A DNA stretch of 64,000 bases from NCBI GenBank assembly GCA_965178125.1, contig OZ237763.1:186001-250000 (forward strand). Direction: 5' to 3'. Shown one piece after another: positions 1 through 64,000 of this stretch (positions are counted from its first letter, which is position 1; each line of letters begins with the position of its first letter). The notes below the pieces were generated by a model, which saw only the letters and a list, made by a program, of their open reading frames with translations, had not been told where the DNA came from and searched no databases. This DNA is from Bilabrum cf. latius (lineage: Eukaryota). Made by a program: the position numbers and the translations under genes.

Positions 1-3000
1 ACGTCCGCTGACATCGACTGCAACCTGCGGGGACGATTTGTCTTTGTAGCCATGAGGTCAGCGTCTATCACCTTGTGCGAAGTGAAGGTGTTCGCGAACA
101 AGATGCTGGACAGCCCTTCGGCCAGGTACGCCCACACGGCCGTCACCACGCGCGGCAGCATGTTCCTGTTCGGCGGTGTGAACGACGCTGGCACCGCCCT
201 GAGCGATGTGCACGTGTTCGACACCGTGGCTCTCGGCTTCAAGAGCACCCTCGAGCTGGTGGGCGATGCGCCTCAGGCACGCGTGGGGGCCCGTCTGCAG
301 CAGCTGGCGGGTGGCAACCAGCTGGTGCTGTTCGGTGGTAGGGCAGGGGCGGCTTCTGGCTCGGATGTCATGGCCGACCTTCGCTTGATCGAGATGGATG
401 AGTGCAGGAACGTGGACACCACGGGCGTGTCTTCTGTGAACGACTTCCGCGGGGCCAAGTACTACACGTGCGACTCGGCGCAAGAGTTCACGGAGCGCAA
501 CCCGGTGCAGGGTGACCCTGTGGTGTGTTCCCCCGAGGGCCAGCTGCAGGGCCGCACCCCGGTGTGCCAGGCAGAGCCCCCTGAGGCGCCCAGGACCGTG
601 ACGGCTGTGACGGGGCGGGAGCAGGCCACGGTGCGCTGGCAGTTCCCCGCCGGTGCAGACACGGGGTACTACTCTAGTCTGACTGGGTTCAAGGTGCGGT
701 CCTTGCCGCAGGCCTTCGTGGAGACGTTCGACAACCCCTCTCTGGCCAACGGATGGACCTTTGTGACGAACGGGAGGTCTGATTCTGCCTTCCAGCAGGT
801 GATCGAGCCGGACGGGAATGGCGTGCTGGTGATGCGGGGTGGCAACCAGATCAACTGCTGGACCTCTGCCCAACGCGACTGTCCCATTCTGTACCGGGAG
901 CACTTCCCGCTTGGGCTGACCGACGAGGAGGGCACGAACGGGTGGATGGAAGAGAACGACTGGGCCATCGAGGTGTGGGTCAACATGGAGGCTGGGTACA
1001 TCGGCGATGCTCGTATTGGTGGCATCATGTTCTACGAGCTCAACGATGACATGCACAAGCTTTACTACGGGGTTAGGCGCATCGATGGAGGATTCCAAAT
1101 CAATCTGGAGAAGGACGGCGAAGGGTATAGGTCTCACTGGAACAGCTAGTATGGTGCCTGGCTGCGTGCCGAGCGGACGGGCTCTAGTCGTGTGATCGAC
1201 TTCACCTACAAGACGTGCTCCCAGGGCGAGACCCGCAGGGAGTGCTACGAGAACCGCGGCTGGAGGCAGTTCTGGACCCAGTTCCCAGAGGGCTGGCTCA
1301 GGAACGGGGCCATGCAGAACGTGCGCGTGGGTCTCTTCATCAAGTCGTGGACAAACGGCGAGACCCGCTTCCGCTTCGACGACTTCACTCTCAAGATCAG
1401 GGACTGCACCACGCCGGGTCCCACTCGATTCATCTCTGCAGCCGACGCCACGACGTCCACAGCTGGCAATTACGAGGCGCTGATCCCCGGGCTGTCCCCG
1501 GACACTTCCTACCGGTTCGATGTGGCGGCAGGATCCTAGGCGGGCTTCGGCCCCGAAGCGGACCCCTCGAGGGCTGTGCGGGTGACCGCCCAGGCTGTGA
1601 ACGACGTCCAGGTCGGCAGGCTCAAGCCGGTGGCCAGCAACGGACAGGCGCACGGTGGGTGGCCACCTCGCGCAACCGACACGAACTACAACCTGTACCA
1701 CGACGGCTGGCGCTGCACGCATTCTGACTGGCGCTGGGGCCCGTGGATCCGCATCGATCTGCAGAAGCAGGAGTTTGTTACCCGTGTGGACGTGGCTGGA
1801 CGGCTTGATGGTAGCAGGGACCGCCTGAACGGATTCCGGGTGTACATCGGCGACAGCGCAGGCAGCCCCACCCAGAACACCCAGTGCGAGGTGGACTATC
1901 CCTGGAACGCGCCTCAAATAATGACCTACGTGCCTGTCAACTGCAACCTGCCTGGCCGGTATGTGTTTATTACTAGACAGGACTGGACCTACCTTACTAT
2001 ATGCGACACGCGCATCTTCGCCCTGGACGGCTGCGACACCAGGGAGACAGACGATGCTACCGAGACAGCTGGATCTGTGTGCAACGGTGCACGCACCGGT
2101 GACCAGTGCACCCTGTCCTGCGATGTTGGGTACTCGGCAGCTGCAGGTGCCTCGTCTGCTGTGTGCCGCAAGGGTGCATGGTCCGCCCCTGACCTGGTCT
2201 GCTCGCAGCAGTGCCCCGCCCGGCCTGCCCCTGCCGGTGCCGCGACGTGCCTGCAGACGGTGATCAAGGAGGACTTCTCGATCTCGGACAGGGCCCAGCC
2301 CCGCTTCATGAGCATCGCCGAGGACACGTCCCCCAGCGACAAGCACATCTTCGCCATCGACAGCATGCTGGTGCTTGCGCCCAGCAGGCAGGGGTGCTAG
2401 GGGAACGCAGACCTCATCGGCGCCTTCTACGGAGAGACGCAGGGCGTTGTGGCCATGGTCACGGACCCAGACCCGCGCTCCATCAGCGATGGCTTCCACC
2501 AGATCCGCACTCGACTGAGGATGGAGCCCAAGGAGGCCCGAGGCCAGGCCGGTATCGTGTTCCGGTCGGCTGATTCATCCACGTACTACCAGGCCATGGT
2601 GTCCACAGTGCCCGCCACGCAGCTGGGTGGAGCTACTGTGACCGGCAACACCGAATCCAGCGGCAGCCCGCAGCGCATCGTGCTGCAGCGCAGCGGCACC
2701 GGCGTGGTGCTGGGCGAGGGCGCGCTGACTCTGGCTTCTGGCGAGTGGCACGATGTGGTGGTGAAGCTGGACGGGCGGAAGTTCTCGCTGGAGATCAACG
2801 GGGCCGTGGTAGTGGAGGTGGAGGACTCCACCATCCCTTCGGGCGATGTGGGCGTGTTCGTGTCCCCTGGCGAGGCCCAGGCTCTGTTCGACGATTTTGA
2901 GGTGGAGAAATCGTGCGCTGTCACGGGAGGTGACACTGTCTCGGGATGCCGCGGCACTACCCACCAGGACACGTGCAAACTCAACTGCAGGACCGGGTTT

Positions 3001-6000
3001 GACCTGGTGTCGCCCGCTGGCGGCATCGAGGGCACTGGCGACAGCGCGCTGGCCGTGGACACGTGCCGCCTGAACGGCACGTGGACGCTGTCCACTGCCC
3101 CCACGTGCCTCATCCGCCCGCCCCGCCTGGACAACCAGACCCGCTCCATCGACGAGAACTCGCCCCGAAACACGCCCATCGGTGATCCGCTCACGGCAGA
3201 GCTGGACGCAACCGACGAGCAGCTTGAGTACTCGATCGTGGGCGGCAACGACGGCGACACGTTCAAGATTGGGCTGTGCGACGGGCAGCTGAGTGTGAGG
3301 GATCCAACGCTGCTGGACTACGAGAGCAGGCAGGTGTTCGACCTGGTTGTGCGGGTGGGCGTGAACGGCTTCCCCGGCTCGCACATCGATGTGGGCGTGA
3401 CTGTGGACATCTTGGATGTGAACGAGCCCCCGAGCCTGCCTCCAGGGTCGCGCATCTTCACTGACGAGAACCTGGGCAACGGCAGTTCCGTGGGTGTGTC
3501 GCTGGCCACCATTGCCACTGACCCCGAGAACGACCCCCTGACCTTCCGCCTCGCATTCGACGAGTCCCAGCGGCTAGGCATCACGGCAGCTGGCCAGATG
3601 TTCATGAAGCTGGACAGCAACGACATGCCCTTCAACTTCGAGGCCAAGGACGGCGGGCTGAGCGCCCCCGAGTTCCTGGCTATCATTGAGATCAGGGACA
3701 TCGCAGACAACCGTGTGGAGGAGCTGCTTCGTGTGGAGGTGCGGGATGTGAACGATGCCCCCGTGATCGCAGTGGACCAGGTTCTCATCGTGGACGAGTT
3801 CGGTGCTGTGCTACGCACGGGTGCAGGCACCCAGTTCAACACCTTCTCTCCTGATCCCGAGGTGCAGGACGAGGACAACGGCATGTGGCGGGTGGCTCTC
3901 ACGTACAGCCTGGCCACCTCTGGCAACATCACGACAGCCACCGGCATGACGGCCGGGCCGCTGACGGACGGCTCCTCGAACCTGTTCGCGATTGACTCGG
4001 CCACGGGCAAGATCACGGTGGAGAACAAGCCCACGCCTCGGGACTGGAGCAACTCGGGCGAGTTCAGGCCCTTCCTGTCAGACGTGGTGCCGGGAGGAGC
4101 CCTGGTGCGAGCTGTGTATCACGCTCACCTGTCCGTGACGGACGGCAACCTGACGGACACTAAGCCAGTAGCTCTGGTGGTGCGGGCCAACCTGACCGAT
4201 ACGCCCATCATCGACTCTTTTACTTGCGAGCAGCTGCCCGTGATCGCCACCCAGGCCGTGGACTGCAACTTCACGGGCCAGTACCTCGGCAGCGTGAGCT
4301 CCACGTACAGGGTGCACTTCAACCGCACTGACCCAGCCACTGGCATGGAGCAGAAGGTGGAGATGTAGAACTGCAGGCCCGGTCACATGCCCGATGAGTA
4401 CTTCACGTGCACCACCCCAGGTGACGGCATGGGATACGGTCGTGGGTTTGCCCCCTTCGCCATCGTGGACTCGGATGTGGCCATCATCGCCACTTCGCAG
4501 TCATTCGATTATGCCGACCCTGAAATCTCCATGGTATACCCCAGCGCATTCCAGCTAGCCACTGAAGGTGGTACTGTGATCAGTATCTCTGGCACTAACC
4601 TCGGGCCCGTGGGCAAGCGCCGGCTGTTCTACCAGCGGCCGTCTGGGTCAGCCGATGGACAGGCCCGGTTCGAGTGCCAGTCGACCACGCTCCCTGCAGG
4701 TGCCGAGCCGCAGCACAACTTCACTTGCGCGAGCGTGGAGGGCTCTGGCGCCAATCTGCACTGGGCGCTGGTGATCAACGGCGAGATGGGCTACTCCTCG
4801 CTGTCGGGACCATTCGTGGGCGACACGCCTCCAGAGCCCGTCATGGCGTCCCAGCAGCCTGCTGACTTGGTTTCTTCGATTCCGTTCAGCTATGCCCGGC
4901 CCCATGTTACGAGCGTGCAGGGACTGCAGGGCGTCAACAAGGACATGCTGTCTGGAGCAGGAGGACAGACCGTGCGCATCACTGGAGCCAACCTGGGCCC
5001 CGCCTCGGCTGCTGTCACCGTCATGTACAGGCTGTCATCGGTGTCTCCCTCGCTGGGCACCACCACGGATGGGATGGATGAGTACGAGCACACGATGGAG
5101 TCCTGCTCCAAGCCGTTCGCCACGACCCAGCAGGCTCACACCGTAATCGACTGCGAAGTGGCACCTGGCGTGGGTGCGGGCCACGAGATCATCGTGGAGG
5201 TGGACGGTGTTCGCAGCAACGATGTGACTGACTACCAGGGGCCAGAAGGCGTGTCTCAGATTCCGGCTGACAACCGCCTCATGTCGTACGCCCCGCCCAT
5301 GCTGACTACCGTGCGGAACGGCGAGGATGTGGACACCCGTGGCGGGCGACAGGTGCAGCTGGAGGGATCTGGCTTCGGGCCCGCCTTCTTGGCCACTCTG
5401 GGCTCCATCACTGAGGTGAGGTATGGCCCACCCAACTCGTCTCTGCGGTACGTGGCATCGGATTGCCGCGTGGACAGTGACTCGAGGATGCAGTGCGTGA
5501 TGGTGCCGGGCACTGGCACCATGCTGGAGTTCCGCGTGGTCATGGCCAACCTCGGTTCCAACTTGCACGAGAGCAATGCTTCGTACGCTGCGCCCACGAT
5601 CTCTCGATTCGAGGGCCCCGGTGCTGCTGATGCCGACACCCCGGGTGGGGAGCCGGTGACGGTCTACGGCCGCAACTTTGGTCCGACCGTGCCTGAGTCT
5701 GTGTTTGCCTCTCGCATCCTGGTGGAGTACACTGTGTCTCTGGACAACGGGCCCGAGGACGAGGTCACCTTCGAGGCCAGCGGGTGCAGGCTGGTGACTG
5801 CGCACGAGGCCATCATGTGCGACACCGCCCCTGGTGCGGGTCGCGCCCTCCGCTGGAGCATCCTGCTGGACGGGCAGCGGTCCACAAACCCCACGACTGC
5901 CTACGCCATGCCGGAGGTGCACGCAGTGTGGAGGGTTGGCGAGGAGTGGTCTCCGGTGGTCGACGCAGACCCGAACGGTGGGGAGCGGCTGTGGATCGTG

Positions 6001-9000
6001 GGTGAGCAGTTTGGGCCCCCGGAGCTGACATTTGGCGCTAACTCGCTGACTCTGCTGCAGGGCCTAACGTTTGGCCAGCAGGGTGGCCAGTACGAGGTGC
6101 GCCGGACTCTCTTCACGCACGTCAACCACACGCATCTCCAGGTGACGCTGCCCCCTGCCTCTGGCAAGAGGCACTGGTTCCGTATCATGGTGGCAGACCA
6201 GGCCTCTCCTCAACCAACCGAGGATGACGCCTTCTTCGACTTCGCATCGGCTGAGGTGCTTCAGGTCACGCCTGCCATGGCCGACACCTACTCGCCAGTA
6301 GACAACCCCACGCAGATCGAGCTGCTGACCAGGAATGTGCCTCTGGCAGACCCGCTCAACCGCGTGATGGTGAACTTTGGCTCGGACCGCATCGCGCCGT
6401 CCTCCGTGGAGATCGACAGCGGCAACTCGAGGCAGCAGCGCGTGCGCTTCCCCTTGCCAGTGCATGGAGCCGGCCGCGCCATTCCAGTGCAGGTGGGCCT
6501 CGCCCCCGTGTCGCAGTCCGAGACTGGGCAGTCCGATACGTAGGCCAGCGCCACCATCAACCCCGACTCGCTGTCCGAGATCACGCTCAACTCGATCTTC
6601 TCCTACGAGGACCCCACCCTGGACCGGGCTGTGGTGACCAGGCCTGCGTGGCTGGAGCCAGGCTACGTGGCGCCCAATGTGAACTCCTCAAGCACTGGCG
6701 AGGTCGACTCGGAGCAGGAGCGCATCTGCCCCTTCAGCGCTGGTGACCCGTTCACGTGCGACCAGCAGGACGTGGTGCAGGTGAAGGTGTTCGGCACCAA
6801 CCTGGGACACCCACAGGCCAATCGAGCGGTGAGCTCTGGTCGGTTCGTGCGTTTGTCTGTGGCTCTGGAGCCAGCTCTGCTGGGCAAGCCTGTGTACATG
6901 CGAGACTGGCACCACGACAGGCTGCTGATGTACACGAGCGAGCAGTCGGCCCGCGTGATCCTGTCCATCGAGTCACAGGCGTGGCCCTCGGGGCAGTCGG
7001 TGCAGACAGACAACATCGAGTACCTTGACCTGGCCCCCTACGTGTCTGGGCTGGAGGGCAACATCGACAACGTGCCTACCCGTGGGCACCCAGTGGACAA
7101 CTCCATGGGCCCTGGGCAGAACGGCATCACCATGCGGGTGAGTGGGCTGCAGTTCGTCACCAACCTGAGAGTGCTGGCGAAGGGTGCCACCGCGGCTGAT
7201 GCCACGCCTTGCCGTGTGTGGGACCCCGTTAACAGCGTGTGGATGTCTGCAAGCGAGAACCCAGCAGTGATCCGTTAGAGGGTGCTTGACTCGCAGACCG
7301 GTGTTGGTCCCGGGGAGGCCTACGTGGTGAGCTTCCTGGCGCCTCCTGGGGAGGGCAGCGACCAGTCCATCTGGATCGACAGGGACGGAACTTTCTCCGC
7401 TGGTGATTCCAAGTACTCGTATGCCCCGCCTGTCGCTGTGATGGTGGACGTGTGGGCGGCTGACCCTGCACGGATCGCCAACTACAACGCACGGCGAGAT
7501 GCGTCCAACTGGCGCACGGTGGTGACTGGCGCAGACCAGGCCTCCGAGGGCCGCTGGCTCGAGATCCCCACGCTGGGAGGGTACCTCCGCGTGCGTGGCG
7601 CCAACTTGGGAGAGTGCGCGTATGTTGAGGCAGCTGAGGCGCAAGACGGCGGCCTGATCGGCGGGTACACGTGCGGCGCAAACGGTATTATAACGTATGG
7701 CCACCCATCGGGCAGCGTGATTGACGCGAGTGCGAGGCACAATTGCGCCCCCTAGGGCGTGCTCGAGTCGGACTCCAATGGGCTGCAGGACTCGCTGCAT
7801 GACTGCTTCATCACGGCCGTGCCCATGGGCGAGGGCGATGGTCTCTACTACGGCGATGCCCAGCCCTACTCCCTCCGTGTGATGGTGGGCGACCAGTCGC
7901 TGCACCTGGCGCAGCGAGCCGCTGACGTGGCACAGGCCCTCGGCACCACGATCACCAACCTGGACCAGCAGGCTGCCTCCCAGGCCAATGCGCTGGAGAA
8001 CTCAAGGGACACCAACGCGCTCGTGACTGCCATGCGCGGCAACGCGCAGCTGGTCCGCCGGGACGTGCCTCTGAGGTACCAGTCCCCTAAGGTGCTGGGC
8101 GTGTCGGCGCAGCCCTCCGGCACCGTGCCCACCAAGGGCGGCTCCACGCTGACCGTTTCTGGAACCAACTTCGGCACCACTATCCCTGGTCGTGAAGTGC
8201 CGTCTTCCGTGAACGGATCCACTGCCGAGCCTCTGGTCAAGGTCGAGATCGGCCTGCCCACGGGGCTGTCCTCCAGCTCTCGCAGGCTGCAGGGGGCGCA
8301 GTACGCATACGTGGAGTGCTCCGGAGCCACGCGTCTGAGCCAGGACCAGGTGCGCTGCACGCTGCCCGAGGGCTTCGGCGAGAACCTGCCTGTGCGCGTG
8401 ACGGTCGCTGGACAGGTGGGTGACCCCATGGCTGCGGCCTTGTCGTACGACGGACCCGAGGTCACTGGACTGGCTCTGCATGGTGTGGATCCTGTCATGG
8501 ACCCCGCCTTCAGCAACCCGGAAGTGCTCAACCAGCTGGATCCCACCGGCGTGCTGCAGCGCGATGCAGTCCCGCTTGCAGCTTTGCCGTCGCCGCTGGT
8601 TGACACCGGTGCGATGATGGTGGGCGGGCCGGTTGTGGAGGTGACGTCCACCGGGGGCATCATGCTGGCCAACCTGCCGTCAGGGGGTGGGTACAACGTG
8701 ACGATCCTGGGCAGGAACTTCGGGCGCCGTGGGCTGCTCCCATCTGGTGGTTCCAGCCAGACGTACGAGCTGTGCGTGTTCACTGCTTGGACCTACCGGC
8801 GTCGTGCGCAGGAGCTGCGCTGTGACGGCCTCGAGTCGTTCCAGGGCGAGGGCGAGGTGGCACAGCACATGGTGTTCGTGCATGAGCACGAGGCCATCAC
8901 GTTCCAGGTACCGCCGGCCGTGCTGCAGAGAGACATTGAGCTCTCTGTTGGCGGGCGCTTGCTCAACATCGACATAGACGCCGACAACCATCCCCGCCTG

Positions 9001-12000
9001 CGGTACGCTGCACCCATCCTCGAGTCGCTGGCCCCGCAGACAGGCGGCACCGAGGGCGGCTTTGAGGTGACCATCCGGGGCTACCTCTTCGGCCCCACCC
9101 CCAGGAACACCACCCGCACCTCTCAGCAGCTTTCTCTGGGCTACTTCAGCCCCGGCATCTCCATCGATGAGGCCGCCTCGGTCCCGACGGCCTACCTGCG
9201 CGTGACCTTCTTCCGGTCATGCCTCTCTGACGCTCGAACCCTGGTGGGCGGCAGGCCCCTGGGCGTGTACGAAACGGCTTGCCAATACACGATCGAGCAG
9301 CGCAACGAGAACGAAATCGTGCTGCGTGCTCCTGGCGGCATCGGCGTCAACCGGCCCGTGTCTGTGGTGCTGGAGGACGCTGCCCTGAGCGAGGGCCGCG
9401 TGGTCGAGGGCGGAGAGGGCGGTGCCACGACGTTCCCCGATGTGGGAGGTCTGCATGCCGAGTCCAACACGCTTCGCTTCGCCTACCGCCCGCCTCGCAT
9501 CGACCGGGTTGTGCCCCAGCAGCTGCGCATGTCTCCTCCTGGCGAGCTCGGCAACTACTGGAATGCGCTCAGGGATGCGCGCGATTTATCAGCCGCAGCT
9601 GACGGCGAGGGCGTGATCGGCAATGCAATCATCATCAACGAGCAGACGCAGCGGCCACTGACCGACCTGCTCCACAACTGGGGCTCCAGCATGGAGGAGA
9701 GGCGGAGCCAGCAGGCAACTGTAAACAACACTTACTGGCTGCCCGACTCCGCCCCGAGGCGCACCGTGGCCCTGTATGGGTACAACTACGGTGACCCCGA
9801 GCTGGCTGACAGGCAGGGGTGGACCGCGCAGGAGCGACTGGTTGTGGGCGCCGTGGCTGGTGTCAAGTGCGTGTAGGTCTCCCGCGTGCCTGGGGCTTTC
9901 CCCCGCAGTGGGGACCCGCTGGGAGAGACCACCCGGCAGATCGACTGCACGGTGCCTCACATGACTGTAGGCTTCAAGAACGTGTCGCTGCAGGTAGCGG
10001 GGCAGAGTGGCTTCGTGCCGGCTGCACCCCCGCTCGATGGCGTGTTCCTCGCGTGTGATGATGGCGCATTCGGCGTGGAAGGCGAGCATTGCGTGCCGTG
10101 CCCGCTGGGTGCCGACTGCCAGGGCTACGACGACTCGAGGCGGGTGCACACCATGCCTGTGCCGCAGGCCGGGTGGTACAACCTCAACTCTTCCGATTCT
10201 GTCACGGCCGGCATGGCCGATGCGTGCCCTGCATCCAACCGAGTGCCTGGCCGTGACGTGTGCATCGTCAAGTGCGAGCCTGACTTCGCGTGCGTCGGTG
10301 ACAACCAGTGCGCTGCTGCCTACAAGTCCGAAGCACCGTCGTTCCGATGCGGCAGCTGCGCAGACGGCTACTACAGGCAGGCGGGCCAGTGCGTTGAGTG
10401 CCCGGACAACCCGTGGATCCTCATGGCCGCATTCGGTGTTCTTGTGCTGTGTGGCGCGTTCGGTGCGTACTGGATCAACAAGCGTGACATCAACGTGGCG
10501 CTGGCTGCGTCGGGTATCGACTACCTGCAGTCACTGGCCATCTTCGCATCGGCGCGCGTGTCATGGCCCCCCATGATCCGGGAGATGCTTCACGTGCTGT
10601 CTGCCTTCAACCTCAACCTCGAGATTACTGCCCCCGAGTGCATCGTGCCTGACCTGGGGTACATCACCAAGTGGGCCTTCCTCATGCTGGTGCCCGCTGC
10701 TGTGATGGTGCTGTTCGGCGTGTTCTTCGTGGTCTACTTCCTGTACACGTGGTGCGTGAAGGGTCACGGCTTCAAGAACTCTGCCGACCACCTGGACATG
10801 CTCATCAAGGCGGTCTGCGTGATGTTCTACGTGCTGTATCTCAACCTGGCGCGCCTCACTGCCGACGCTCTCAACTGCACGCCCACTGACCCGCCAGAGT
10901 ACGACGAGGACGGGAACGTGATCCGCTACTTCCAGGCCGTGTTCGAGCCGTGCAACAAGCCGGGCGGCGTCTACCGCACGCTGCTTCCGTTCACGATCCT
11001 GACCCTGGCCGTGTACGTGATCGGTTTCCCTGCCTGGGCCACGTACATCCTGTTCATGTACCGCAAGGACATCGTGGCGGATCAGCTGCTGCGTGCCAAG
11101 GGCACCGGTGACACCAAGTCGAGCGCCACTGAGGGCTCTTTGCTCATGCGCAAGAGGTACTCGAGGCTGTACATGCAGTTCACGCCCAACTACGTCGCGT
11201 GGGTGCTGGTGATCCTGGCCCGCAAGCTGGGCCTCGCCCTGACGGCTCTCATGTTCGTGCAGAACGCCGCGTTCCAGCTGTCCATGGCTCTGCTGGTGCT
11301 GTTCCTGTCGTACTCGGCCCACGTACACAACAACCCGTATATGTCTCCTGGCGACCGCGACGCCGTGGTGCGTGACCACATCACCCGCCGCGTGGACCCG
11401 TCCTCGCTGCACCACCAGATCTGGACCGACATCCAGCGCATCGAGTCTCGGGGTCGCAAGCGGGCCACGTTCAGCAAGGGTCTGGATGTGACGAACGCAC
11501 GCGCACTGTTCGTGAGTCTGTCTTCCGTGGTGTTCGGGTCTGCCCTGTTCGACTACAACACGGTGGAGGCCGTGCTGCTGTTCAGCGCCATCATGGTGGT
11601 GCTGGCCGGCATCATGTTTGAGTCGGGCCGTCTGGACAGCGACTTCTACCAGAGCCAGCGCGACACGCTGACCATCCTGGTGATCCTCATCGTGGTGAGC
11701 ACGCTCCTCTACTTCGGCACTGTCATAATCCTGGACATTGTGGAGATGTGCAAGAACTCGTCCAACGACGACAAGCAGAAGAAGCTGGCAGTCGGCAAGA
11801 CCAAGGGCGGTGGACAGGGTGACTCCCGGGCGCAGATTTCAGCCAGGGACCCTGAGGCAGGCGGCACCGACAAGATCACCACTGAGAACAACCCGATGAT
11901 GATGCGCCGCCCAGCGGCCTCGAAGGACGGCAGCCAGGCCGGCGCCACGGCAGCTCAGCTGGATGCCTCCACGGAGGGCATCCTGGCCATGGATGCACAA

Positions 12001-12414
12001 CAAGTGCCCGACCTGGCTTCCTGGGAGCTCTTCCGAAATGCGTACGGTGACATGGCGCAGCATGTCGCCTAGCTGCGGGCCGAGAATTCGAGCTTGAAGA
12101 AGGACGCCGCCGGTGCGGAGACCGTCATGTCGGCTCGAAGTGGAGCCATGGGCGGCACTAATGCGTCCGGTGGGAATGTTCGGGTGCGCAACCCTCTGTC
12201 TCAGCGCAAGAGGCGCACCGCATTTGGGCCTCAGTCGTCCTCTGGCAACCCCGGAGATGAGTCAGGATCGGTTGCTGCTGCTGCAGCTGCCGGGAAGCCG
12301 ACTGCTTCGAGCTTGAAGGGTCTGAGGCGGGGATCCAGGCGTGGGTCGAAGCGAGCACTGATGGCCACTTCGCCGTCGAGTGGTGGCGACGCTGCCTTGG
12401 ATGGCTCCTCGTGA
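1..12414 (+). CDS. Giant multidomain surface membrane protein, 5'-partial, at least 4137 aa: F-type lectin, Kelch, sushi, FN3, ConA/LamG-like, cadherin repeats, IPT/TIG repeats, Cys-rich region, multi-pass TM C-terminus
   Basis: Ten ORF-track fragments lie in one frame, joined by 9 TAGs (1147, 1537, 2398, 4366, 6541, 7276, 7753, 9874, 12070); the first other stop is TGA at 12412-12414. Motifs: Kelch MFLFGG/LVLFGG; FN3 LIPGLSPDTSYRFDVAA; cadherin LDYE, DVNEPP, DVNDAP; repeated IPT 'TxGGxxVTIxGxNFG'; multiple hydrophobic helices after about 10410. Confidence 0.9.
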
Positions 12415-13103
12415 AGCTTGCGCTCCGATTGTCGCGGTGCTTGCGTAGAGCTCGGCGAACCTTCCCGGTTTGTCTGGCTAACGTGAGACTCGTGAGTGCT
12501 CGCCAATAAGTGTGGTGCGGTTGCACCTACCTATGGCCTGCTCTACTTTGCTTTGGAATGTTTGGGAGCTCCCACGCGGGGTAGGGAGCTCTGCGGTTTG
12601 CCCAGTCGAGTATGCGGGAAGGCATGCGAAGGTTGCAACACGTAGTGGATGTTCGTCTCGGCTATCTCCTCAAGCGGCTCAAGTGCCAGGAGATGGAGGT
12701 GGGGCATAGCCCCATCTTCTCTTCCGGCATGCCGCACGACGGAGAACACATCCTGGTCGACCATTCGCTGCAGCTACCTTGCGTGTTCCTAACAGCGTCT
12801 CGTGCTGAATTTCATTTGTTATAGTTTAAAGCGCTATATGCTTGACTTGCGACGAGTTATGCTTTTGCTAAATCTCCAATTGTGACACAGTTTCTGTAAG
12901 CAGTCGTGTAATTAATTGAATCAAATTAGGCGCCGAAAGATGGTGCCATCGGCAGCGTCGACAGGATCTCGGTGATTCGTCTCGGCGCAGCCATGTTTTG
13001 TTGCTCCCTGGCCTGCTGAGATGTCTCGACAAAAGCCAACCCCTTGTCCCTCCACTGGCATGATGGCATTGACCGACGCCTGGCGGTCCACAGGATCATA
13101 AAA

Positions 13104-16843: not shown

Positions 16844-16891
16844 CCCTTCCGCATCCTGCCCCTTCCGCATCCTGCCCCTTCCGCATCCTGC
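16844..16891. repeat. Tandem repeat, 3 x 16 bp (CCCTTCCGCATCCTGC)
   Basis: Three perfect adjacent copies read directly from the sequence. Confidence 0.9.
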
Positions 16892-24385: not shown

Positions 24386-24585
24386 ATTGCTTAGAGCAGG
24401 TGAATTCGAACGGTTAGCTTGATGAATTGCCGCCAGACGTTTTCGGGCATCAATCGGATCGTGCTGCAGCTGGGTCCCCCGCTCGTCCTCCTAATATTGC
24501 GCACATGGGGCACAGCAGGCAGCACTCAAATCGTTGAAATAGAACGTTAGAGGTAGAATCACACACAATTTTTACTTTCATCGTT

Positions 24586-40085: not shown

Positions 40086-40095
40086 TTTTTACCAA

Positions 40096-50673: not shown

Positions 50674-51179
50674 TACCGTTCGCGGTAACTGCTGAGCCCA
50701 ACTGTAAAACGGCTGATAGTAGTGTGCCGTCTGTTTTCTTCAGCAAGGTTCAACTTTTTGCCAGGCAATAATTTGGTATCCAAGCAAGCAAGGAGGCCGC
50801 GTGAGATGATGCAACCCGCGCTGCTACCCTGTACCTCTTGGTTTCCTGGAGATCGAGACAAGTGGATTCGCTCAATCAAGTGCGAGCTCCTTGCAGGCAA
50901 TCTCGGGCGCAAACCCCCAGTCTTGTACAATTCGAGCGATTTAACGAAAGATATTTCGGACGCATTAAAATCGATATATTTTATTGTACAGTGCAATATA
51001 GTTGAGTGGATGACTTTTGTCCTTACTCCCGCCGTAGAATGGAAGGTGAAGCGCTACCTGCACACTGATTCATTTTACAGTGCATGGGTTGTCGCTTGCA
51101 CCGCCTGATTTGTATGTAGATCGACCATTTCGAGGTTTGAACTCGCGTCTGGTCGGGTCGAGCCTTGGCTATCAACGGC

Positions 51180-52253
51180 ATGTCCATGCTTGACCCTGCC
51201 CTGTCGTCTCATGAATATTTTAGTCATGGATCATCGCTACATGCCGCACACTCACGCCTGGTCTGGATGCGAGACTTCGTCGCGGCGTACGAGGAGCTCG
51301 ACAGTTCTGAAATGGGGTCCGCAAGATCTAGCGGTAACCACAAGCGTTCAAGCGGAGACTAGCAGCAATCGATAGATATCCGCAGAGTCTAGCGGCTCCA
51401 AGCAAGGAGTGCCAGGACCTAGTCTGCGAGGCAAGCCAGCACATTTGCTACGTTTCACCGGCTGACATCGCCGGCGAGCCTGAGAGAGCTTCCAGAAACA
51501 GCATACAGCATTCGATAGATGCGTTACGATGCATAGAAAGAGTAGGAGGCGTGCTTTCTCGCTGCTCCTGTTGCATCGCTCCCAGAAGTGATCCTCACGC
51601 CGCGGGTGAGGCCAGACCCGAGCGATGCGGTCGCACCGACTGGCAGCCGGCTCAGCGTGGGCGGCAGTGGGAGGGTCAGCTGGGAGCCGGTGCGGCTGCG
51701 CCCCAGGGAACAAGTACCAGCTGCTGACGAGCTCGTGCGTCGCTTGCTGGGGACTGGCCCAGGCGGCAGCGGTATCTAGGGCGAGGGCGAGGGCAAGGGA
51801 GAGGGCGAGGGGCTGGGCACCCAAGGGTAGAGAAGGCGGGCGGCCGCCACTGGCAAGGGCCCACGGGGTATGACTCGCCGGCGTGGTGCTGAAGGAGGTG
51901 CTAGTGGTGGGCATGTGAGCCATAGGAAGGGAGGGGGCTTATCTCGAGGCTGGCCAGAAGAGGACGAGGACGAAGATGAGCAGGATGAGGAGGATGATTG
52001 CGATGGCGATTGGCTTGCCTTGGGAAGGCAGGGCAGCAGCAGAAGCAATACCGGTGGGGATGGGCTGCATAGTCGCGGCCCTCGACATCTACCCACGATA
52101 ACCGCTGGTTCTGCGTCTGATCAGCAGCGGAGCAGAGGCGGCCGTGGCGGGAGGGGCAAGGGGAGGACGGGCAGGAGAAAGGATATGATCGGGGCTAGGG
52201 CAGTGGATGAGGCGCTCATGGCGCTCCTTCGAGCAGATTTAGAGGATGGTTAA
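51180..52253 (+). CDS. Hypothetical protein (about 357 aa) with acidic and RG-rich C-terminus
   Basis: Three ORF-track fragments in one frame, bridged by 8 TAGs with no TAA or TGA until TAA at 52251. No recognisable family. Confidence 0.6.
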
Positions 52254-53238: not shown

Positions 53239-56200
53239 TCACTTCCCAGCCACCCTTGAGACCTGCACCCGCTTCCGCCGCCGGGGCACAGCCGGCTTGT
53301 GAGCGCCCTTCCACGGCAGCAGCAAGTCCACCACGGACTGCACCAGGGGCCAGGACAGCGGCGTGGCACGCTCGTCCGCTAGCAGCGGCATCACCATGCG
53401 GACCGCCGTCCACACCGTGAGGTAGGCCTATTTCAGCGAGGCGGGCGTGGGGAACGGCAGCAGAGACTTGCTTACGGAGCGGCCCACGATGGTGAGGAAG
53501 TGCGCGGTGAGGAGCCCGGGAGCGGGTGACAGCGCGGCCAGGAGGTGGATGGGTCCCGCGAGGCATGCCCCTCCAAGCCTCATGTAGTCAAGGAAGGCCT
53601 GTTTGATCGTCTGCTTGGTCTCCCGCTCCGGCCCTTCTTCACCGGGAATGCTCAGCACGTCGTACATGGCATTGGCCAGCACGTTGACGGCGCTCGCGTG
53701 GTGCACCCGCCTGTCCTTCCACTCTGCCAGGGCGAGCCCCAGGGCCGACGGGTCGCCCAGGTCAACCTAACCCGTGGTTACAACCGGTTCGGACAAGTCC
53801 TTCACGCCCTGGTTCCGCAGATCCTCCAGGGTGGCGCCGCGCAACGCGTCTGCGAGCGACTCCGAGTCCATGAGCGCAACCGACATGCCCCCTCCGGTGA
53901 TGGGGTGCCTCATGTTCCAGGCATCCCCCAGCAGCACCACGCCGGACGCGCCATTGCCGCTGCCTTGTTCCTCCGCCTCGGGGGCCACCGGCAGGTACCT
54001 ATTCCCGCACGGCTGGGGCACAGAAGTGTCCAAAGCGGCCCTCGCTGCCTCGCGGAAGGCTCCCGCCGGGAACTGTGGTAGGACGTGGTTCCGCAGATGG
54101 GCAGTGAGGCTGCTGTCTTTGACCACCTTCTTGACCCTGGTGCCCGGCTTCAGGCCGGTGACCGCGCCCTATTCCTCAGCGCACTACTCCTCACCATCCT
54201 CCTCGCTTCGCTTGCTCTCCCCACCCTCTGCTCTCCCCCTGTCGCCCACGTCTTCGGTCGCCATCTCCTTGGACTCCTCCTCGGCGTGCACACCGCCTGT
54301 GTGGGAGCTGGAATCGCCCTCGCCTTCCTCCTCCTCGAGGGGCACGTACACTCCATCATCGGAAGGCAGGAGGTTGGGCACATCGATGAGCAGCCGAGTG
54401 GCGCAGGGGCTGACCTGGTAGGCCACGTGCGGGCTGGGCTCGGCCAGGAAGAGGTTGGCCCTGTACCTGTAGGGCAAGGGGGACTCCATGGGAGGGTGGT
54501 GCAGCACGAGGCCCACAAAATGGCTCACAATCCTTGGCTTGGCACTCGTCACAGTCCCTCTAAGACCGGAGAACATCCCATCAGCGATGACCACCATAGG
54601 TGCGTACACCTTCCGCTCCACCGACTCCCCGGCCTTCCTCCAGCGCATCGCGAAGGCGCGGCCCTCTCCATTCTTCGATCCCGAGTCGTTGTTCACGGCG
54701 GATGCAATCTGCCGCGCGACCCTCTCCGCCGCATCAACCTCCTCCCCGGACATCTCCCTGCCCATCGCATCCTGCTCTGCCTGCACCAGCGCCTGCAGCA
54801 CGCCTCTCGCGTCACCTTCTGCGGCCGCCCGACCCACCGCGTCTTTCAGCCCGACACCCGCCGCTTTGACCACCCCGAGGGCCCTCCCGGCACACAGCCG
54901 CACGTTTTGTTCCCTGAAGGCCAGCCTCCTCAGCCCTGCCACGAACCGGTGGTTGTGGAAGGACCGGCCCCGGGGCATCTCGTCCACGCCCCACGCCACG
55001 GGCTCCCCCTCGCCGAGATGGGCCCCCGCCCCGTTGCCCCCGGCCCCGCCCAGTGCGGCCAGTGCCCTTGCGTGCTCCTCGAGCATCTGCTCGCCCACGT
55101 CAAGCTCGTGCTCCTCTTCCGGGGTGCCTACGCCCGCCTCCTGAGCTGCGGCCAGCTGCTGCGCGACTCTCCTGGCATCGGCCGCCAGCTTTTCTTGTTC
55201 TGTGAGGTGGACCCCGAACCCAAAGTGCTGCGCCTCGTTGTCCCCCGGGTCTGCCGTGGAAAAATTCATCACGATGGTGCCGTCCACGTGCTGGTCGCGG
55301 ACCGCCGTGCCGCGCGTGATGCTCGACTTGATCGCGCCGCGGTCGTCTTCGGAAAGTTTGCCATTGGGTTCGGCCATCGGAACCATAGTGTAGCCATCCG
55401 CTCTGATGCTGCGGGACCGGCCGTCTTTGCATGCGTCCGCGAGTCCCATGCGCTCCAGGGCCCGGACGCCGCCAGGCTGCAGGAACTCGCCAACAATTCT
55501 CGGCTGCGAGCAGGTAGAAACAAGACCATAAGCAAGACGCGGACTTGTTGTGTTGTGGGATAGCGTGTCCAGGAGCGACAGCAAGTATACACTTGGTCGC
55601 ACAAGGTCGCATGCGACCAGTCGCTGCGATCCCTACCACAGTCGACCCTCTAGCACGCCAAAACCACAATAAACGAAAGGATTACCTCTCAACGCACGCG
55701 GCAGGAATGCCCAGAGTCGGCAGGAAACGACAAGATGCGGCCAATTGCCATCGGGTCCCACTTCCGCAAGACGCAAATCAAGGTCGCATTCAAATACTAG
55801 TACGAAAACGACTCACCTGAAGCAGCAAAGTTCCTTCTATAAGAGCAACCTTTCGTCCGTCTCGCGCGAGACGGGCCGCCAGCGTCGATCCGGCTGTACC
55901 AGCGCCAACAATAACGACATCGGCAAACGAAGTAGGATCTCCCGAGGTCTCTGGCGAGTCAGACTACGCGCGAAGGGTGCTCGCACGATGACGCAAAGAT
56001 GCAGCTTCTTGACTAGGCACTGAATCTGCGCTTTGCTTGCCAGCAGCTTCCTGGGCCTCCTGAATAGCGGTAGCTACCGCGTCGGCAAAACCACCGACCG
56101 CACCTCCCGCGAGTCCAGCCGCACCTGCAGCCAGGAGCCCAAGAGCCACTGGCATGTCGACAAATACGAACGGATATAACACAAGTAGTGCGGCAGCTGC

Positions 56201-56374
56201 GAGGCCTGCCAGGGTGGCAGAAAGGAATGCGCGGCAGACGGAGCAACCGACCGCAGCGCCGAGCATCGCGGCAAAGCTCAGCGCACCTGCCTGGATCCCA
56301 GCGATATGTCCAGCCCCAGTGGCAAGTGCCGATATTAAAACTGGTACCAGAACTCCATAGCGAGGGAGGCGCAT
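53239..56374 (-). CDS. SQLE: Squalene monooxygenase/epoxidase with N-terminal membrane segments and insertions (about 940 aa)
   Basis: Motifs DVVIVGAGTAG, RIVGEFLQPGG, GRSFHNHRF, IADGMFS, SHFVGLVL, LLGDAWNMRHPITGGGMSVAL, NVLANAMY. Exons 56374-55817 and 55503-53239. TAGs at 55964, 54184, 54169, 53767 and 53428; TGA at 53239. An additional upstream exon is possible (AG just before the ATG). Confidence 0.92.
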
Positions 56375-57145
56375 CCTGCGGAACGCCTCGGAGCCCAGGA
56401 TACCGTGAAATGGAGCAATGCGCGGACGTCGCTTTGGGTCAAGTCTGAATTAGCTGGACTGTGTCTTAAGGTGCACGCAATTCGGGGCGTGACCACGGGC
56501 GTGCTTGGAATTGGAGACTACACGCTGCTTGTCGACTATTGTGCGCAGAAATCGTGTCGCATTCGTTGGCATGCACCGCCAGCAACAAAGCCACAGATAG
56601 ACCGACACGATGCCCCTAGGCGGGGCACACAACGAGGCCGCTCGTCACGCGAGACGTAGAGCAGCGAGATGGGAGAGGCGAAAGAGGGCCCATAAATAAA
56701 ATAGACCCGCTTGGAACACCCACTCCCTCCCACCCGCTCACGACCCAAGACCCGGGGCCATGCACGGGGCCGACGCCAAAGGCACCCCCCCCGAGAAAGG
56801 GGTGCTGGCGACAGACCCATGGCGCGCATGGTCCGAGCCCGCAAGCGCTCAATCGCACCGAGCCACCGCACCTGACCCGCCCCACCCGGACGCGCATCCC
56901 CCGCCCCGACTCATGACAATGAGGGAGGCAGGAGGTGCACGCGTCGGGAGAGAACGAGGCCTTGTGGCAACGGCTTTTTGGCTCATGCGCGAGGTGCTGC
57001 TCGCCTACCCACTCGTCACACCCAGGGAACAAAGTAATACAGCCGGCCATCCTCCGTCCGCCAACACTAGATCTACCACGCTCCTGCACTCGTCACACAA
57101 ACACCGCCCTGCAGCCCCTACCCGTCCTATCGCGCGGCGGACTGC

Positions 57146-58198: not shown

Positions 58199-59484
58199 AT
58201 GGCTGCCACTGAGCCAAAAGCTCTATCCGTAGGTGATCTTGATGAGTAGATCGAGCGCCTCAAGCGCTGTGAGCACCTGAAGGAAAGCGAGGTGAAGGCG
58301 CTGTGCGCGCGCGCTCGTGAAATTCTCGTGGACGAAAGCAACGTGCAACGAGTAGAGGCTCCTGTCACCGTGAGTTTCTCGCTAAAGTACAATTTACTTA
58401 CAGTCAAGATCAACTGAAGGGTGCTAACGTTTCCCTGTGTTTCACCTTTTGCTGTGTATTTGTGGTCGCGCGGTGACGACACCTCAGGGGAGAAATCGCA
58501 GCGGTGGCAAGCACTGTTGTTCTTTGCAGTCTGGCAGGACGCTGGTGGCAAGCACTTGACTTTTGATTCGTGTATGTCTGGTGCTGTTCTAGACGCTGCG
58601 GCGGCTTGTCTCGCTGCGAGAGACCCGATCGTTTTCCGTAACGTCTCTCATCTTCCGTTTGAAGCGAATGCCGACCACCACGCCGCGCGCACTTCACGCA
58701 CTGCTCGCAGATCGTCGGTGACATCCACGGCCAGTTTTACGACCTTGTGGAGCTGTTCAAGGTTGGTGGCGAGTGCCCCGACACGAACTACCTCTTCCTG
58801 GGAGATTTCGTGGACCGCGGCTTCTATTCGGTCGAGACGTTCCTGCTCCTGCTTGCCCTCAAGGTTCGCTACCCCGAGCGGATCACTCTGATTCGTGGCA
58901 ACCACGAATCCCGGCAGATCACCCAGGTTTACGGTTTCTACGACGAGTGTCTGCGCAAGTACGGCAGCGTCAACGTGTGGCGCTACTGCACGGAGATCTT
59001 CGACTACCTCTCCCTGGCCGCCCTCGTGGACGACAAGGTCCTGTGCGTGCACGGGGGACTGTCCCCCAGCATCCACACGCTGGACCAGATCCGCGTGATC
59101 GACCGGAAGCAGGAGGTGCCCCACGACGGCGCCATGTGCGACCTGCTCTGGTCCGACCCCGAGGACATCGACGGGTGGGGCCTCAGCCCCCGCGGGGCAG
59201 GATACCTCTTCGGGGCGGATGTGGTGACCAAGTTCAACCAGACCAACAGCCTGGAGCTCATCTGCAGGGCGCACCAGCTGGTCATGGAGGGCTTCAAGTG
59301 GATGTTCGGGGAGAGGCTGGTGACCGTGTGGTCTGCCCCCAACTACTGCTACCGCTGCGGCAACGTGGCCGCTATCCTGGAGCTCGACGAGCACCTGGAG
59401 CGCTCCTTCAAGATCTTCGAGGCCGCGCCACAGGAGGCCCGCGGGGTCCCGAGCAAGAAGCCGGCGCCCGACTACTTCCTGTGA
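58199..59484 (+). CDS. PPP4C: Serine/threonine protein phosphatase 4 catalytic subunit (PP2A family), 314 aa
   Basis: Motifs DLDE[TAG][55 protein letters not shown]-terminal DYFL. Exons 58199-58369 and 58711-59484. Confidence 0.93.
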
Positions 59485-60294: not shown

Positions 60295-61343
60295 TTAAAT
60301 CATTCCCTGCTGTTCGAGAGTCGCCTTGGCCTGGACTGCCTGCAACGTTGCCAGTGCCCCTGACTTGAGGCACGACTTGAACTTCTTGCCGTCTGACCGG
60401 CTTGCAGGCCCAGCATCCCTTAGCCCCCCTCCGCTGGCGAAGTCGATGAAGTTCTGCAGCTCGCCCTTGTCCCCCTTAATTTTGAATGTGAGCGTGCAGG
60501 GCATCACCTTCATGCGCTTTGCAGGGTCAGTGATGTGCTGGTCGGGCCACACAGCCAGCACGGTCACCTCGGTCTTGCGCTCGGCCGTCTCCTGGCCCCT
60601 CATGCGGTTGATCTGCTTGCTCAGACGACTTATCGCCCCTCCCCTCCACTTGGGCTTGCTCGCCTTCACGAAGAAGAAGCGCGCCACGCTGTCAGGGCCT
60701 TCCTGTCCCTCCTGCGCACCCAGGTAGTCGTCTAGCACTCGATTCATGGGTCGTTTGCCATCAAGGCACAACTCGGTGATCTTGGATTTGCCCAACCCGC
60801 CATTCACATGCAACAGCCCATTGTGTTTGGTGTACTGATCGGGGTTGGCGAATTCTGAAAACATTTGGTCAGCATATGAGCCAACAACAGCAATCTGCGA
60901 GGCAGCGGTGGAGGGGCGGGCAGTCGAGGCCTACGATCGAGCCAAGTGTCTACAACCAGAGCCACCGGGGTGCAAGGGTCTGTCTACTGCAGTGCCGGTG
61001 CTCTTACCTTCAACGGGGATGCATTCTGCTTGTCCTAGGATTCGTAGTTGCGGTACATTGAGAAGATGTCCGTGCTGCCACCGCACGGGCCCGCAGGCCA
61101 CTGCCCATCTTCTACATCCTCCTCCTCCTCGTCCTCCTCGTCTTCCTCCTCCTCTGACTGTTTTACTTCGTTGATGAGCTCGATTTTGTCAAAGTCGTCT
61201 TGTTCCGGCTCTTCATCAAGGGATGGATCCATAGTATTAGCGCTGCTTGTGGCAGAATGCCTGACTGCGTGCGACCCTGTCCTCACTGAGAGAGCAGAGA
61301 CCGACAGCGCCAGAGCAGCGATCACGCATGCGATCGAACGCAT
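60295..61343 (-). CDS. Secreted hypothetical protein with signal peptide and acidic tract (about 311 aa)
   Basis: Signal-like MRSIACVIAALALSVSA followed by an E/D-rich tract. Exons 61343-61008 and 60894-60295 (GT-AG intron). TAG at 61035; TAA stop at 60295. Confidence 0.7.
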
Positions 61344-62053
61344 TTCAGGGAAGTGTACTGCGAGAGTGTAGCATTGTGACTTTTGCGCTGACTGAGAGGT
61401 CGGTGCCGAATCCGGCTGCGATGCAGATCGATCCATTTTGGCACTGTTCTCGGCGCGGCTGACCCTGCTGACACTGTCGTTTGATGAGTGCATCAACATG
61501 TGTGTAAAATAACTAGGAGTGCATGTCTCCTTTTGAGCGTACTTCTTACATTTCGATTTTTATGAAGATGCAATTCACTCGTTGCAGGAGCCAGTGGAGC
61601 CAGCCGCGGCCCGGAAGCCGGCTTCATTCGCCGAGCACAGATCCGGAAACAAAAAAGCGTAAGGTTGCATGATGATGCAACGGACGACATATATAGCGGT
61701 TTAATGGCAACAGCAGACCCATAATTCCAACCGGGGCGGGGACCCGCACCTGGGAAGACGTGGGCAGGGGCTCGGACACGGTGCGTTCGTGCCTGGTCTG
61801 TCCATGAGCCAAGGGGTGGAGCGGGATGGGAGAGAAACAAAGAAACCATGAGACACGGATGAAGAGAAGGAAAAGGAGCGGGAGACAGCAGGGAGGAGGG
61901 TGGTCTATTCCGGTGGGCGTGCTGTCGCTGAACCCCGGCCTGCGAGGAGACGATTGCCTGAGGATGCCAGCCACCAGTCACATTCAAGCACACACACAAG
62001 ATCGGACCGAGGCCGCCACGACTCATCCCTGTCACGGCCTGCTGCTGCCCCCC

Positions 62054-63215
62054 TCACACGCCACCGCCAGCGGCCGCCCCAGCCGGTGGCTCCTCGCTGA
62101 CCGTGACGAACTTCTCGAACATCTCCTTGACCACGCGGGTGGAGCCCGCGGGGATCTTGCGGGACTCGGGGCGCCGCGTGAGGGCGCGCAGAGGCTCCTT
62201 CGGGTTGGGCTTCTCGTACCCGCGCATGACCTCTGCCTTGCCGTCCGCCCGGATGACGCACAGGTCCACGTTGCTGCCCGAGCCCAGGTCGTTGAAGATG
62301 CCCGCCCGGATGGCCCTGCGGACGAGATCCCTGGCCTCTTCCTCCGTGAGGTCGTCCTTGTACCCGCTCTCGAAAACGGACATGGCTGCGAGTGAGCCGC
62401 TGCCCATCGTCACGAAGGGGAGCTTGTCGGTGCTGCCGTGCGGGTAGATGCTGTACAGGTGGGGGCCGGTCGCGTCCACGCCTCCGAGCACGAGGGCGGC
62501 GGAGATGTGGCCCTGGTACTGGAACAGTCTCCTCTTGAGCATGGTCATGGCCGTCACGACCCTCGGCTGCCTGTGCGTCTGCAGGCGCAGCAGTTCCAAG
62601 TTGCTCGAAGTGAGCTCCGTGATCTTCTCCGTGTCAGCGGCGGTACCGGCTGCGAATGTTGATCATTGTAGGGCGGATTTCGGTACTAAGCTTAGAGCGC
62701 GTGCATAGTAGACGGGAATCTGTCAGACTAGTTCCTTTCTCACCTCCACAGCAGTACACATTGTTAGCCAGGTAGTGAATCTTCTCGCAGTTGAGGTCCG
62801 CGATTACTGTGCCCTCGGTAGCGCGAGTGTCTGCGCCAAGCACAACGCCGTCCTTATACACTACACCTACGATGGTTGTTCCTGTCTTCAATACCCTAGG
62901 TGGCTTCATACCACGCTTGAGAAGCAGCGCATTCCGGCGTGCTAGATCAAAGCTAAATCCACCAAGGGGGCGCCCAACAACTGCGAGAGAAATCACACAA
63001 TATCTCATAAATCAAGTGTATGCTTTTGACTCGGTCGAATGGAACATGCCGCAACGTTGGCTTCCATCGGCTGCAGCCAAGAGTGCGGCAAGCAGCTCCG
63101 TCACGACGTGGAACGCCGGGACAACACGTCAGTAACCCTCACTCTTTGCCTCAGGGTGGCCCGCCTTATGATCTAGTGACGCATCAGAGCTCGCTCCAGC
63201 ACGAATGGACTCCAT
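62054..63215 (-). CDS. PSMB7: 20S proteasome subunit beta type-2 (trypsin-like, PUP1/PSMB7), 301 aa
   Basis: GGFSFD...RN propeptide, [48 protein letters not shown]. Exons 63215-63143, 62980-62744 and 62649-62054. No TAG; TGA stop. Confidence 0.93.
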
Positions 63216-63348
63216 GCTACGAGAATAATTGCCGTACGAGCATTCCAAAATTTCGGATCGACCCCAAAGTAACGTGCTGCCAGGGTTGATAAATCGGAAT
63301 CCAATGCCTGGGCTGGGTGAGACATACCAGCCAAATTTGGGGACACTC

Positions 63349-64000
63349 ATGTCATCATCTAAGCATAGGATACCCGGATCAGTGCAATCGTAGCCATACT
63401 ACCCATCGAGTGCGTACATGGGGTGAGATACTTGTTTATAGCGCAGCACCGAGGCCTTGCTATATCAACTGCAATCACCGCAAGGCAAGCATCAGCCCGT
63501 GCGCCTCGCAATATTTTGCAGGGATGACTTCCTTGGAACTCCCAAAGCAATTTCAAAGGCTGCTGAAACGGAAGCGCGCACCGACGTAGTAGCTCCAACT
63601 TTGCCGGGATCTGCCGCTGCGCAACTGCAACCGGGTGGCGAACGAGGCGCAGACTCAGCATGTAGAGCCAGTCCTAGCACTCCTGGGGATATCAAATCAA
63701 ATAATGGCATAGATGGCAGCGCTCCCAGCTCTGGAGCCGGTGCCGGAGAGAGCAGCAATGGTAGCACAGGAGCAAGCACTGCGGCCGGGCTATCGGGCTC
63801 AGCCGCGACCAAGACGGGGAGCAAGCCCGGATCGCCCAAAAGAGCAAGAAAATCGAAGGGACTACCCGGTAGCGCATCCAGCAGCCGGTCCGGTTCACCC
63901 GCGGAGGAAGCCTCCTTCGCCCCAGGCTCCGCCAAGCGCGGCCACTTTGCTCGCATGCTTGCCTCCCCTAGCGTGGACCAGAAGGCCCTCAGGGAGAAAG
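63349..64000 (+). CDS. Probable TBC-domain Rab GTPase-activating protein (TBC1D22/Gyp1-like), 3'-partial
   Basis: Exons 63349-63422 and 63522 to the window end (GT-AG intron, frame-consistent). TAG at 63391. Ends ...HFARMLASPSVDQKALREK, which resembles the helix preceding the TBC 'W.G.P' motif; the domain itself lies outside the window. Confidence 0.55.

Follow-up and report, generated by a model that had tools for sequence, protein, structure and literature searches.

The 64,000-nucleotide window analyzed here (contig OZ237763.1 of Bilabrum cf. latius, positions 186,001 to 250,000 of the forward strand) raises the question of how its genes read the codon UAG. When the standard stop codons are applied, the large genes of the window break into pieces, whereas treating TAG as sense restores single long frames. 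Bounded only by TGA or TAA, these include frames of 4137 amino acids (1-12414, plus strand, 9 TAG), 3405 amino acids (27288-37505, minus strand, 8 TAG), 2370 amino acids (41966-49078, minus strand, 1 TAG), and 1407 amino acids (20162-24385, plus strand), the last of which encodes RPB2, the second-largest subunit of RNA polymerase II. Pfam supported the frames as RPB2, PanB and PanE, Myb, RME-8, squalene epoxidase, SNF2/HSA, TIG/cadherin, deaminase, and proteasome; PP4c was named from its homologues, and the extents of the frames agree with those of full-length homologues. A preliminary description of this DNA had proposed that UAG encodes glutamine (Gln, Q) across the whole genome, a pattern that corresponds to NCBI translation table 15. 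Our comparison of the predicted proteins with their homologues indicates that UAG is very probably glutamine in this organism; within the window the proposal was supported by homologue columns, by contigs from public sequencing runs, and by genes that end at TGA.

Stop triplets were counted in 16 frames making up 14 gene models, trimmed to probable starts and exons, for a total of 16,792 codons. The frames were picked as free of TAA and TGA and are delimited by those two stops. The count excluded weak models at 56-58 kb, 60-61.6 kb, and 63.3-64 kb, together with the TAGs of frames 60298-61188, 60807-61559, and 63293-63998. The coding frame contained 71 TAG, 0 TGA, and 0 TAA, compared to 63 TAG, 315 TGA, and 23 TAA in frame +1 of the same DNA and 78 TAG, 226 TGA, and 28 TAA in frame +2 (541 TGA and 51 TAA for both non-coding frames together). 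A count performed before trimming gave 70 TAG in 16,887 codons. In-frame TAGs are therefore present and widespread in the window, at about 0.4% of codons and in 13 of the 14 gene models; the exception is a proteasome beta subunit (62054-62960, minus strand; Pfam match, ending in TGA), for which two exons were read. The in-frame frequency of TAG is close to the out-of-frame frequency, so TAG appears not to be selected against. Among Gln-type codons, TAG accounted for 70 of 788 (with 610 CAG and 108 CAA), and it was denser in the genes richer in CAA, namely those for the Myb protein, the coiled-coil proteins, and the deaminase protein. The preliminary description had counted about 80 TAGs in 16 of 17 models; the size of that count was confirmed with weak frames excluded, although the exact figure was not reproduced. 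Its finding of no internal TAA or TGA held over all of the codons counted, and the contexts that it quoted were all present, with a lower-case q at each TAG: QKQQQQQLqV in Myb, LqAQSQqQG in the deaminase protein, and VqESQQqQE in a coiled-coil protein.

The amino acid at TAG sites was read from columns of aligned homologues. Three TAGs lie at conserved sites, two of them in RPB2 (20231-24385, plus strand), a single-exon gene with seven Rpb2 Pfam domains that ends in TGA, and one in PP4c, a phosphatase catalytic subunit (58199-59484, plus strand; exon 1 at approximately 58199-58372, main exon to 59484). At RPB2 codon 1312 (24095-24097), within the motif KLLFQEL, the 120 homologues carry Q in 117 of 119 filled positions (H 1, A 1, gap 1). 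At RPB2 codon 75 (20384-20386), Q occupies 100 of 108 filled positions (E 3, H 2, D 1, A 1, T 1, gap 12). PP4c codon 17 (58247-58249, DLDEqIERL) was aligned with the 88 of 120 matches that were 295-330 amino acids long, and 76 of its 85 filled positions are Q (M 5, W 3, A 1, gap 3). All 3 TAGs at conserved sites thus align to glutamine, and TAGs occur within essential genes, both as had been claimed earlier. When log-odds were summed over 13 columns, Q scored +9.4 bits and the runner-up, E, scored -9.3 bits, making glutamine the clear call.

Contigs from public runs bear on whether these TAGs belong to the genes at all. The RPB2 stretch was matched at 94-100% of sampled words in seven runs from three studies with three coded organism labels. 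Four more runs, including ones labeled "protist metagenome" and "algae metagenome," match 20162-24385 at about 0.2 of sampled words; the organism of the window may travel with other cultures or samples. We compared window positions 12400-32399 with contigs of four runs (X1, X5, X6, and X7) from three studies. The long contigs of X1, a 22-kb multi-gene record among them, are colinear with the window and show 0 differences, and X5, X6, and X7 yielded gene-sized contigs over the same interval with 0 other letters at RPB2 and Myb. Whole RPB2 is covered by one X5 contig (20105-24550), again with 0 other letters, and is covered in parts by X6 (20343-22323 and 22369-24519) and X7 (20337-21704, 21678-22329, and 22412-24453). 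All six in-frame TAGs in the probable coding sequence of the Myb-domain protein (13104-15233, minus strand; Pfam match, ending in TGA) are unchanged in X5 contig 12886-15282 and X6 contig 13178-15263. The X5 Myb contig joins 15282 to 16115 and skips 832 bases, a joint that is also found in X7 and not in X1. The skipped bases are a GT..AG spliceosomal intron (GTGAGA...CGCAG; 15284-16115 on the minus strand, with the ends read from the window) in the leader of the Myb transcript, and the same X5 contig keeps all six Myb TAGs. By piece coordinates, 18 coding-frame TAGs lie beneath X5 contigs. Across the four runs a single letter differed in 20 kb: one X6 contig (depth 3 of 20.6) shows G>A at 29966, which may be an allele or an error.

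The gene-sized and spliced contigs that keep the TAGs argue against assembly error, editing, and splicing-out, which the preliminary description had named as ways in which its proposal could fail. An explanation by artefact or decay would invoke assembly errors, pseudogenes, RNA editing of UAG to CAG, or unrecognized introns. Nothing specific favors it, although the RNA label of the runs is a guess, and it is nearly excluded by the identical letters from four runs and three studies, by frames of up to 4137 codons free of TGA, TAA, or frameshift, by colinear gene-sized contigs that span TAGs and in one case are spliced elsewhere, and by the two TAGs in RPB2, an essential gene. The shape of the contigs suggests that the TAG-containing genes are expressed.

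Which stops still terminate was examined at the frame ends, of which 14 of 15 are TGA and 1 is TAA. UGA is a terminator in this window, and the usual one. PP4c ends in ...DYFL, which we take to be the usual C-terminal end of the PP4c family, with TGA directly after. Conserved sequence runs on past the last TAG of squalene epoxidase and past that of RPB2, which lies 290 bases from TGA; in Myb, the last TAG lies 30 codons upstream of TGA. The earlier statement that no model ends at TAG was independently upheld for RPB2, squalene epoxidase, and PP4c, but elsewhere it is partly built in because frames were delimited by TAA and TGA. Unconserved tails bounded in this way, that of Myb for example, could hide late termination at TAG. 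UAG might then be ambiguous, read as glutamine inside genes while still terminating some genes near their 3' ends in a context-dependent manner, and context-dependent codes have been described in Condylostoma, in karyorelict ciliates, and, for UAA, in Blastocrithidia. This scenario is quite unlikely, however, given that TAG is as dense in frame as out of frame with no sign of selection against it, that the late TAGs of RPB2 and squalene epoxidase are followed by conserved sequence, and that TGA is plentiful as a dedicated stop.

The status of UAA was judged from its absence. If TAA:TAG followed CAA:CAG (108:610), about 12 in-frame TAA would be expected, and 0 were seen (Poisson P approximately 4e-6, in frames that are TAA-bounded). 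Because about 12 were expected and none was seen, UAA is probably still a stop, and this is the weakest link in the case. Alternatively, UAG and UAA could both be glutamine, the UAR-to-Gln code of table 6, with TAA merely too rare in a GC-rich (guanine-cytosine-rich) genome to appear in coding frames. UAR-to-Gln is by far the commonest variant among those described (PMC11687900, PMC5304391), and a TAA end was seen in one uncertain frame only. However, the deficit of in-frame TAA, together with the 51 out-of-frame TAA in the same DNA, makes this alternative very unlikely.

The GC content across the window was 57-75%. The best named RPB2 matches were Cafeteria roenbergensis (55% identity) and Bicosoecida sp. 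CB-2014, with metagenome proteins at up to 58%, and the best named matches of a giant protein with TIG domains, at the start of the window, were also from Cafeteria. Two RPB2 trees, of 36 rows (LG+G4) and 30 rows (LG+C20+F+G4), were built from subsets of the 120 best matches. Both models placed the window as sister to C. roenbergensis plus two other proteins (98 by the Shimodaira-Hasegawa-like approximate likelihood ratio test, SH-aLRT) and placed that group inside a clade with Bicosoecida sp. CB-2014 (100 SH-aLRT). The organism therefore stands beside Cafeteria among bicosoecid-like stramenopiles in the RPB2 phylogeny that the preliminary description had suggested as a placement check, and its remark that this is not a typical ciliate agrees with the RPB2 and TIG matches. 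Ciliate identity was rejected on the stramenopile affinity of these nearest homologues, the GC content, and the 22-kb multi-gene contig in X1. By one gene on a long branch, the organism appears to be a bicosoecid-like stramenopile (Bigyra) near Cafeteria. The RPB2 proteins of the Cafeteria clade are called whole (1276-1318 amino acids), which suggests that this clade uses the standard code. A closer relative, at 86-87% amino acid identity over the N-terminal part of RME-8, was observed in JGI, ENA, and Logan assemblies (P0262, P0410). These entries match window positions 49165-49740 (minus strand) and are seen only as open reading frames of 201 and 231 amino acids starting at an internal Met, which may be the outcome of standard-code calling over an in-frame TAG. 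With such a relative in metagenomes, the age and spread of the code change could be dated.

Several points weigh against the assignment of UAG to glutamine or narrow its base. The amino acid call depends on three columns in two genes. At one of these, RPB2 codon 75, the closest relatives in the Cafeteria clade carry E or D, and the alignment has indels there. Twelve further TAG columns, in the TIG protein, RME-8, and PanB, are variable and uninformative. The nine in the TIG protein are variable or gappy (16 of 17 matches aligned, P0139 omitted). The RME-8 N-terminal column has 91 filled positions (K 34, R 9, E 7, A 7, Q 6, and others), the RME-8 C-terminal column near the GYF domain has 32 (R 12, E 5, Q 5, K 5, and others), and the PanB column reads R, R, and Q in three PDB chains. 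Taken alone, the ten variable columns that were scored (nine TIG and the RME-8 N-terminal one) give E +0.7, S +0.3, and Q -4.1 bits, with no signal. In squalene epoxidase, one TAG lies opposite S of the human enzyme and another inside an insert. Were UAG another residue, such as Glu, Lys, Leu, or Ser, variable columns rich in K, R, E, S, and D and the acidic residues of the Cafeteria clade at codon 75 would fit, and codes with UAG as Leu, Ser, or Glu are described in PMC11687900. However, the three conserved columns contain no, or almost no, E, K, L, or S, and the summed score parts Q from E in favor of Q; another residue is highly improbable.

Other points against the glutamine reading concern the runs, the window, and the tree. 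Run X5 is flagged "probably DNA," and the RNA nature of X5 through X7 is deduced from contig shape and one spliced joint; moreover, the data compared were contigs, in which rare variants drop out. The sole TAA-ended frame (51180-52253, plus strand; about 357 codons, 8 TAG, no Pfam match) is of uncertain coding status. No tRNA genes or Rfam families, 18S included, were found within the 64-kb window by ARAGORN and Rfam, and eRF1 is not among its genes. The RPB2 branch of the window is long (0.61-0.67) in trees that hold 35 and 29 of the 120 listed matches, and the 120 best RPB2 matches, from which the trees were sampled, include no named ciliate or metamonad. Finally, the genome-wide part of the earlier proposal is an extrapolation from 64 kb.

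On the best-supported reading, the window is nuclear DNA from a stramenopile, rich in GC and poor in introns, that is close to the bicosoecid Cafeteria; UAG is no longer a stop in this organism and is translated as glutamine, with UGA as the usual terminator and UAA probably kept as a stop. From what is established for such codes (PMC5304391), a tRNA-Gln(CUA), one base from tRNA-Gln(CUG), would read UAG and not UAA, and eRF1 would have lost recognition of UAG via changes in its N-terminal domain at the elements that contact the stop codon. New TAG codons would then arise from CAG by C-to-T change (PMC5304391). Another scenario is that UAG is sense without a dedicated tRNA, being read by the near-cognate tRNA-Gln(CUG) or by an altered tRNA while eRF1 does not compete, and altered-tRNA routes have been described for UGA (PMC13092985). 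Such a route would have to decode efficiently at about 0.4% of codons in nearly every gene, and the documented UAG/UAR-to-Gln case, Tetrahymena, uses a cognate tRNA-Gln(CUA) (as cited in PMC5304391). We consider it unlikely, and it would alter the mechanism only, leaving the meaning of the codon unchanged.

The code read here matches a known type, in which UAG alone is reassigned to glutamine; this case differs in its lineage (a stramenopile), its GC-rich composition, and its dominant terminator, TGA. The nuclear code of Iotanema spirale (Fornicata), as described in PMC5304391, has UAG as glutamine with UAA and UGA as stops. It resembles the present case in that UAG is reassigned, here too probably alone and with UAA probably not read as sense, and in that the inference came from conserved columns. 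It differs in belonging to Metamonada rather than to stramenopiles, in having UAA as its primary terminator as opposed to TGA in 14 of 15 ends here, and in being known from a transcriptome and carrying eRF1 T32G (PMC5304391). Among ciliates, reassignment of UAG only to glutamine is described for two phyllopharyngean lineages and Protocruzia tuzeti (PMC11687900). Their codon table is probably identical, but the RPB2 and TIG proteins of the window are nearest to Cafeteria and its DNA has 57-75% GC and long multi-gene contigs. Codes with both UAG and UAA as glutamine occur in many ciliates, Hexamita, Streblomastix, ulvophycean green algae, and Amoeboaphelidium (PMC11687900). In those codes as here, a stop was captured by glutamine, presumably via a mutated tRNA-Gln; in contrast to them, TAA is absent from the coding frame here (0 against about 12 expected), and UAG and UAA thus appear uncoupled. 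In the rhizarian exLh (Leu) and in Scotinosphaera (Ser), UAG is described as reassigned to residues other than glutamine while UAA stays a stop (PMC11687900, PMC5304391). These likewise uncouple UAG from UAA in a non-ciliate nuclear genome, but to L or S, whereas the three conserved columns here are Q.

No variant nuclear code from a stramenopile or bicosoecid emerged from a full-text literature search, supplements and most subscription journals being outside its scope; the single match for Bigyra (PMC10120064) deals, in the passages retrieved, with viruses and Streblomastix. We lean towards regarding the present case as the first nuclear stop-codon reassignment in a stramenopile, an independent origin of the UAG-only-to-Gln code in a free-living, GC-rich, bicosoecid-like flagellate. 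Few changes to nuclear codes are known, and fewer still set UAG apart from UAA; the sources cited name this separation for a single fornicate, several ciliate lineages, one rhizarian, and one green alga (PMC11687900, PMC5304391). If true, the reassignment would have arisen independently in a major group for which none is reported. Such a genome would also serve as a natural experiment on whether disuse of a stop has to precede its capture and on how eRF1 drops UAG while keeping UAA. With TGA as almost the sole terminator, the case would fit a stop codon that fell into disuse under GC pressure and was then captured, in a composition opposite to that of the AT-rich ciliate and metamonad cases. 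In practical terms, standard-code annotation of this genome or its relatives would break most genes, and the same would hold for metagenome pipelines that meet this lineage.

The remaining genes of the window were read with TAG as sense. At its left end is a giant membrane protein (1-12414, plus strand; Pfam match, ending in TGA) with Kelch, F5/8-C, cadherin, and IPT/TIG domains and a C-terminal membrane part, the 5' end of which is cut by the window. This is the TIG protein referred to above; its 9 in-frame TAGs are at 1147, 1537, 2398, 4366, 6541, 7276, 7753, 9874, and 12070, and homologues with the same architecture exist, C. roenbergensis being among their sources. Between Myb and RPB2 lies a fusion of PanB (ketopantoate hydroxymethyltransferase) and PanE (ketopantoate reductase) at 17166-19946 (plus strand; Pfam match, 4 in-frame TAG, ending in TGA). 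In one continuous frame of 926 amino acids, PanB comes first and the N- and C-terminal PanE domains come after it, and the protein joins two consecutive steps of pantoate synthesis. Downstream of RPB2, a protein with a C-terminal cytidine/dCMP deaminase domain (24586-27270, minus strand) has 8-9 in-frame TAG, its start being uncertain, and ends in TGA. An HSA/SNF2-type chromatin remodeller of 3405 amino acids follows (27288-37502, minus strand; 8 in-frame TAG, ending in TGA). It has approximately 75% GC across 10 kb, with long Ala/Gly/Ser/Pro-rich tracts and RG repeats, and its Pfam matches are confined to short stretches.

Two coiled-coil proteins come next. One, labeled OFD1-like in the preliminary description, lies at 38056-39707 (plus strand); its two frames, 37987-39006 and 39099-39707, contain 11 in-frame TAG and have no Pfam match. 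The other lies at 40599-41633 (minus strand) with 7 in-frame TAG and ends in TGA. RME-8 (DNAJC13-type; 41966-50673, minus strand; Pfam match, ending in TGA) comprises two frames with an intron near 48.95-49.16 kb, and its TAGs are at 47030-47032 and 50575-50577. Squalene epoxidase (53239-56449, minus strand; Pfam match, ending in TGA) has two exons, with the FAD-binding start in frame 55790-56449, and 5 in-frame TAG. Introns were few: the Myb leader, RME-8, squalene epoxidase, PP4c, and the proteasome subunit each gave evidence of one. Pfam gave no match for frames 37987-39003, 39099-39704, 51141-52250, 60298-61188, 60807-61559, and 63293-63998.

Long antisense frames of 1,300-1,700 codons, among them 20468-24571 (minus strand) opposite RPB2 and 43850-49024 (plus strand), were rejected as genes. 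Because their GC content peaks at codon position 1 rather than 3, they are by-products of GC bias at the third codon position of the true genes; such frames are open to mis-annotation as genes. Low-complexity, GC-rich coding repeats at approximately 25073-25739 and 29075-29741 had 10-20 times the depth of neighboring sequence in all four runs, with many joints and loose ends in the run contigs; the raised depth and the many joints point to a motif repeated across the genome.

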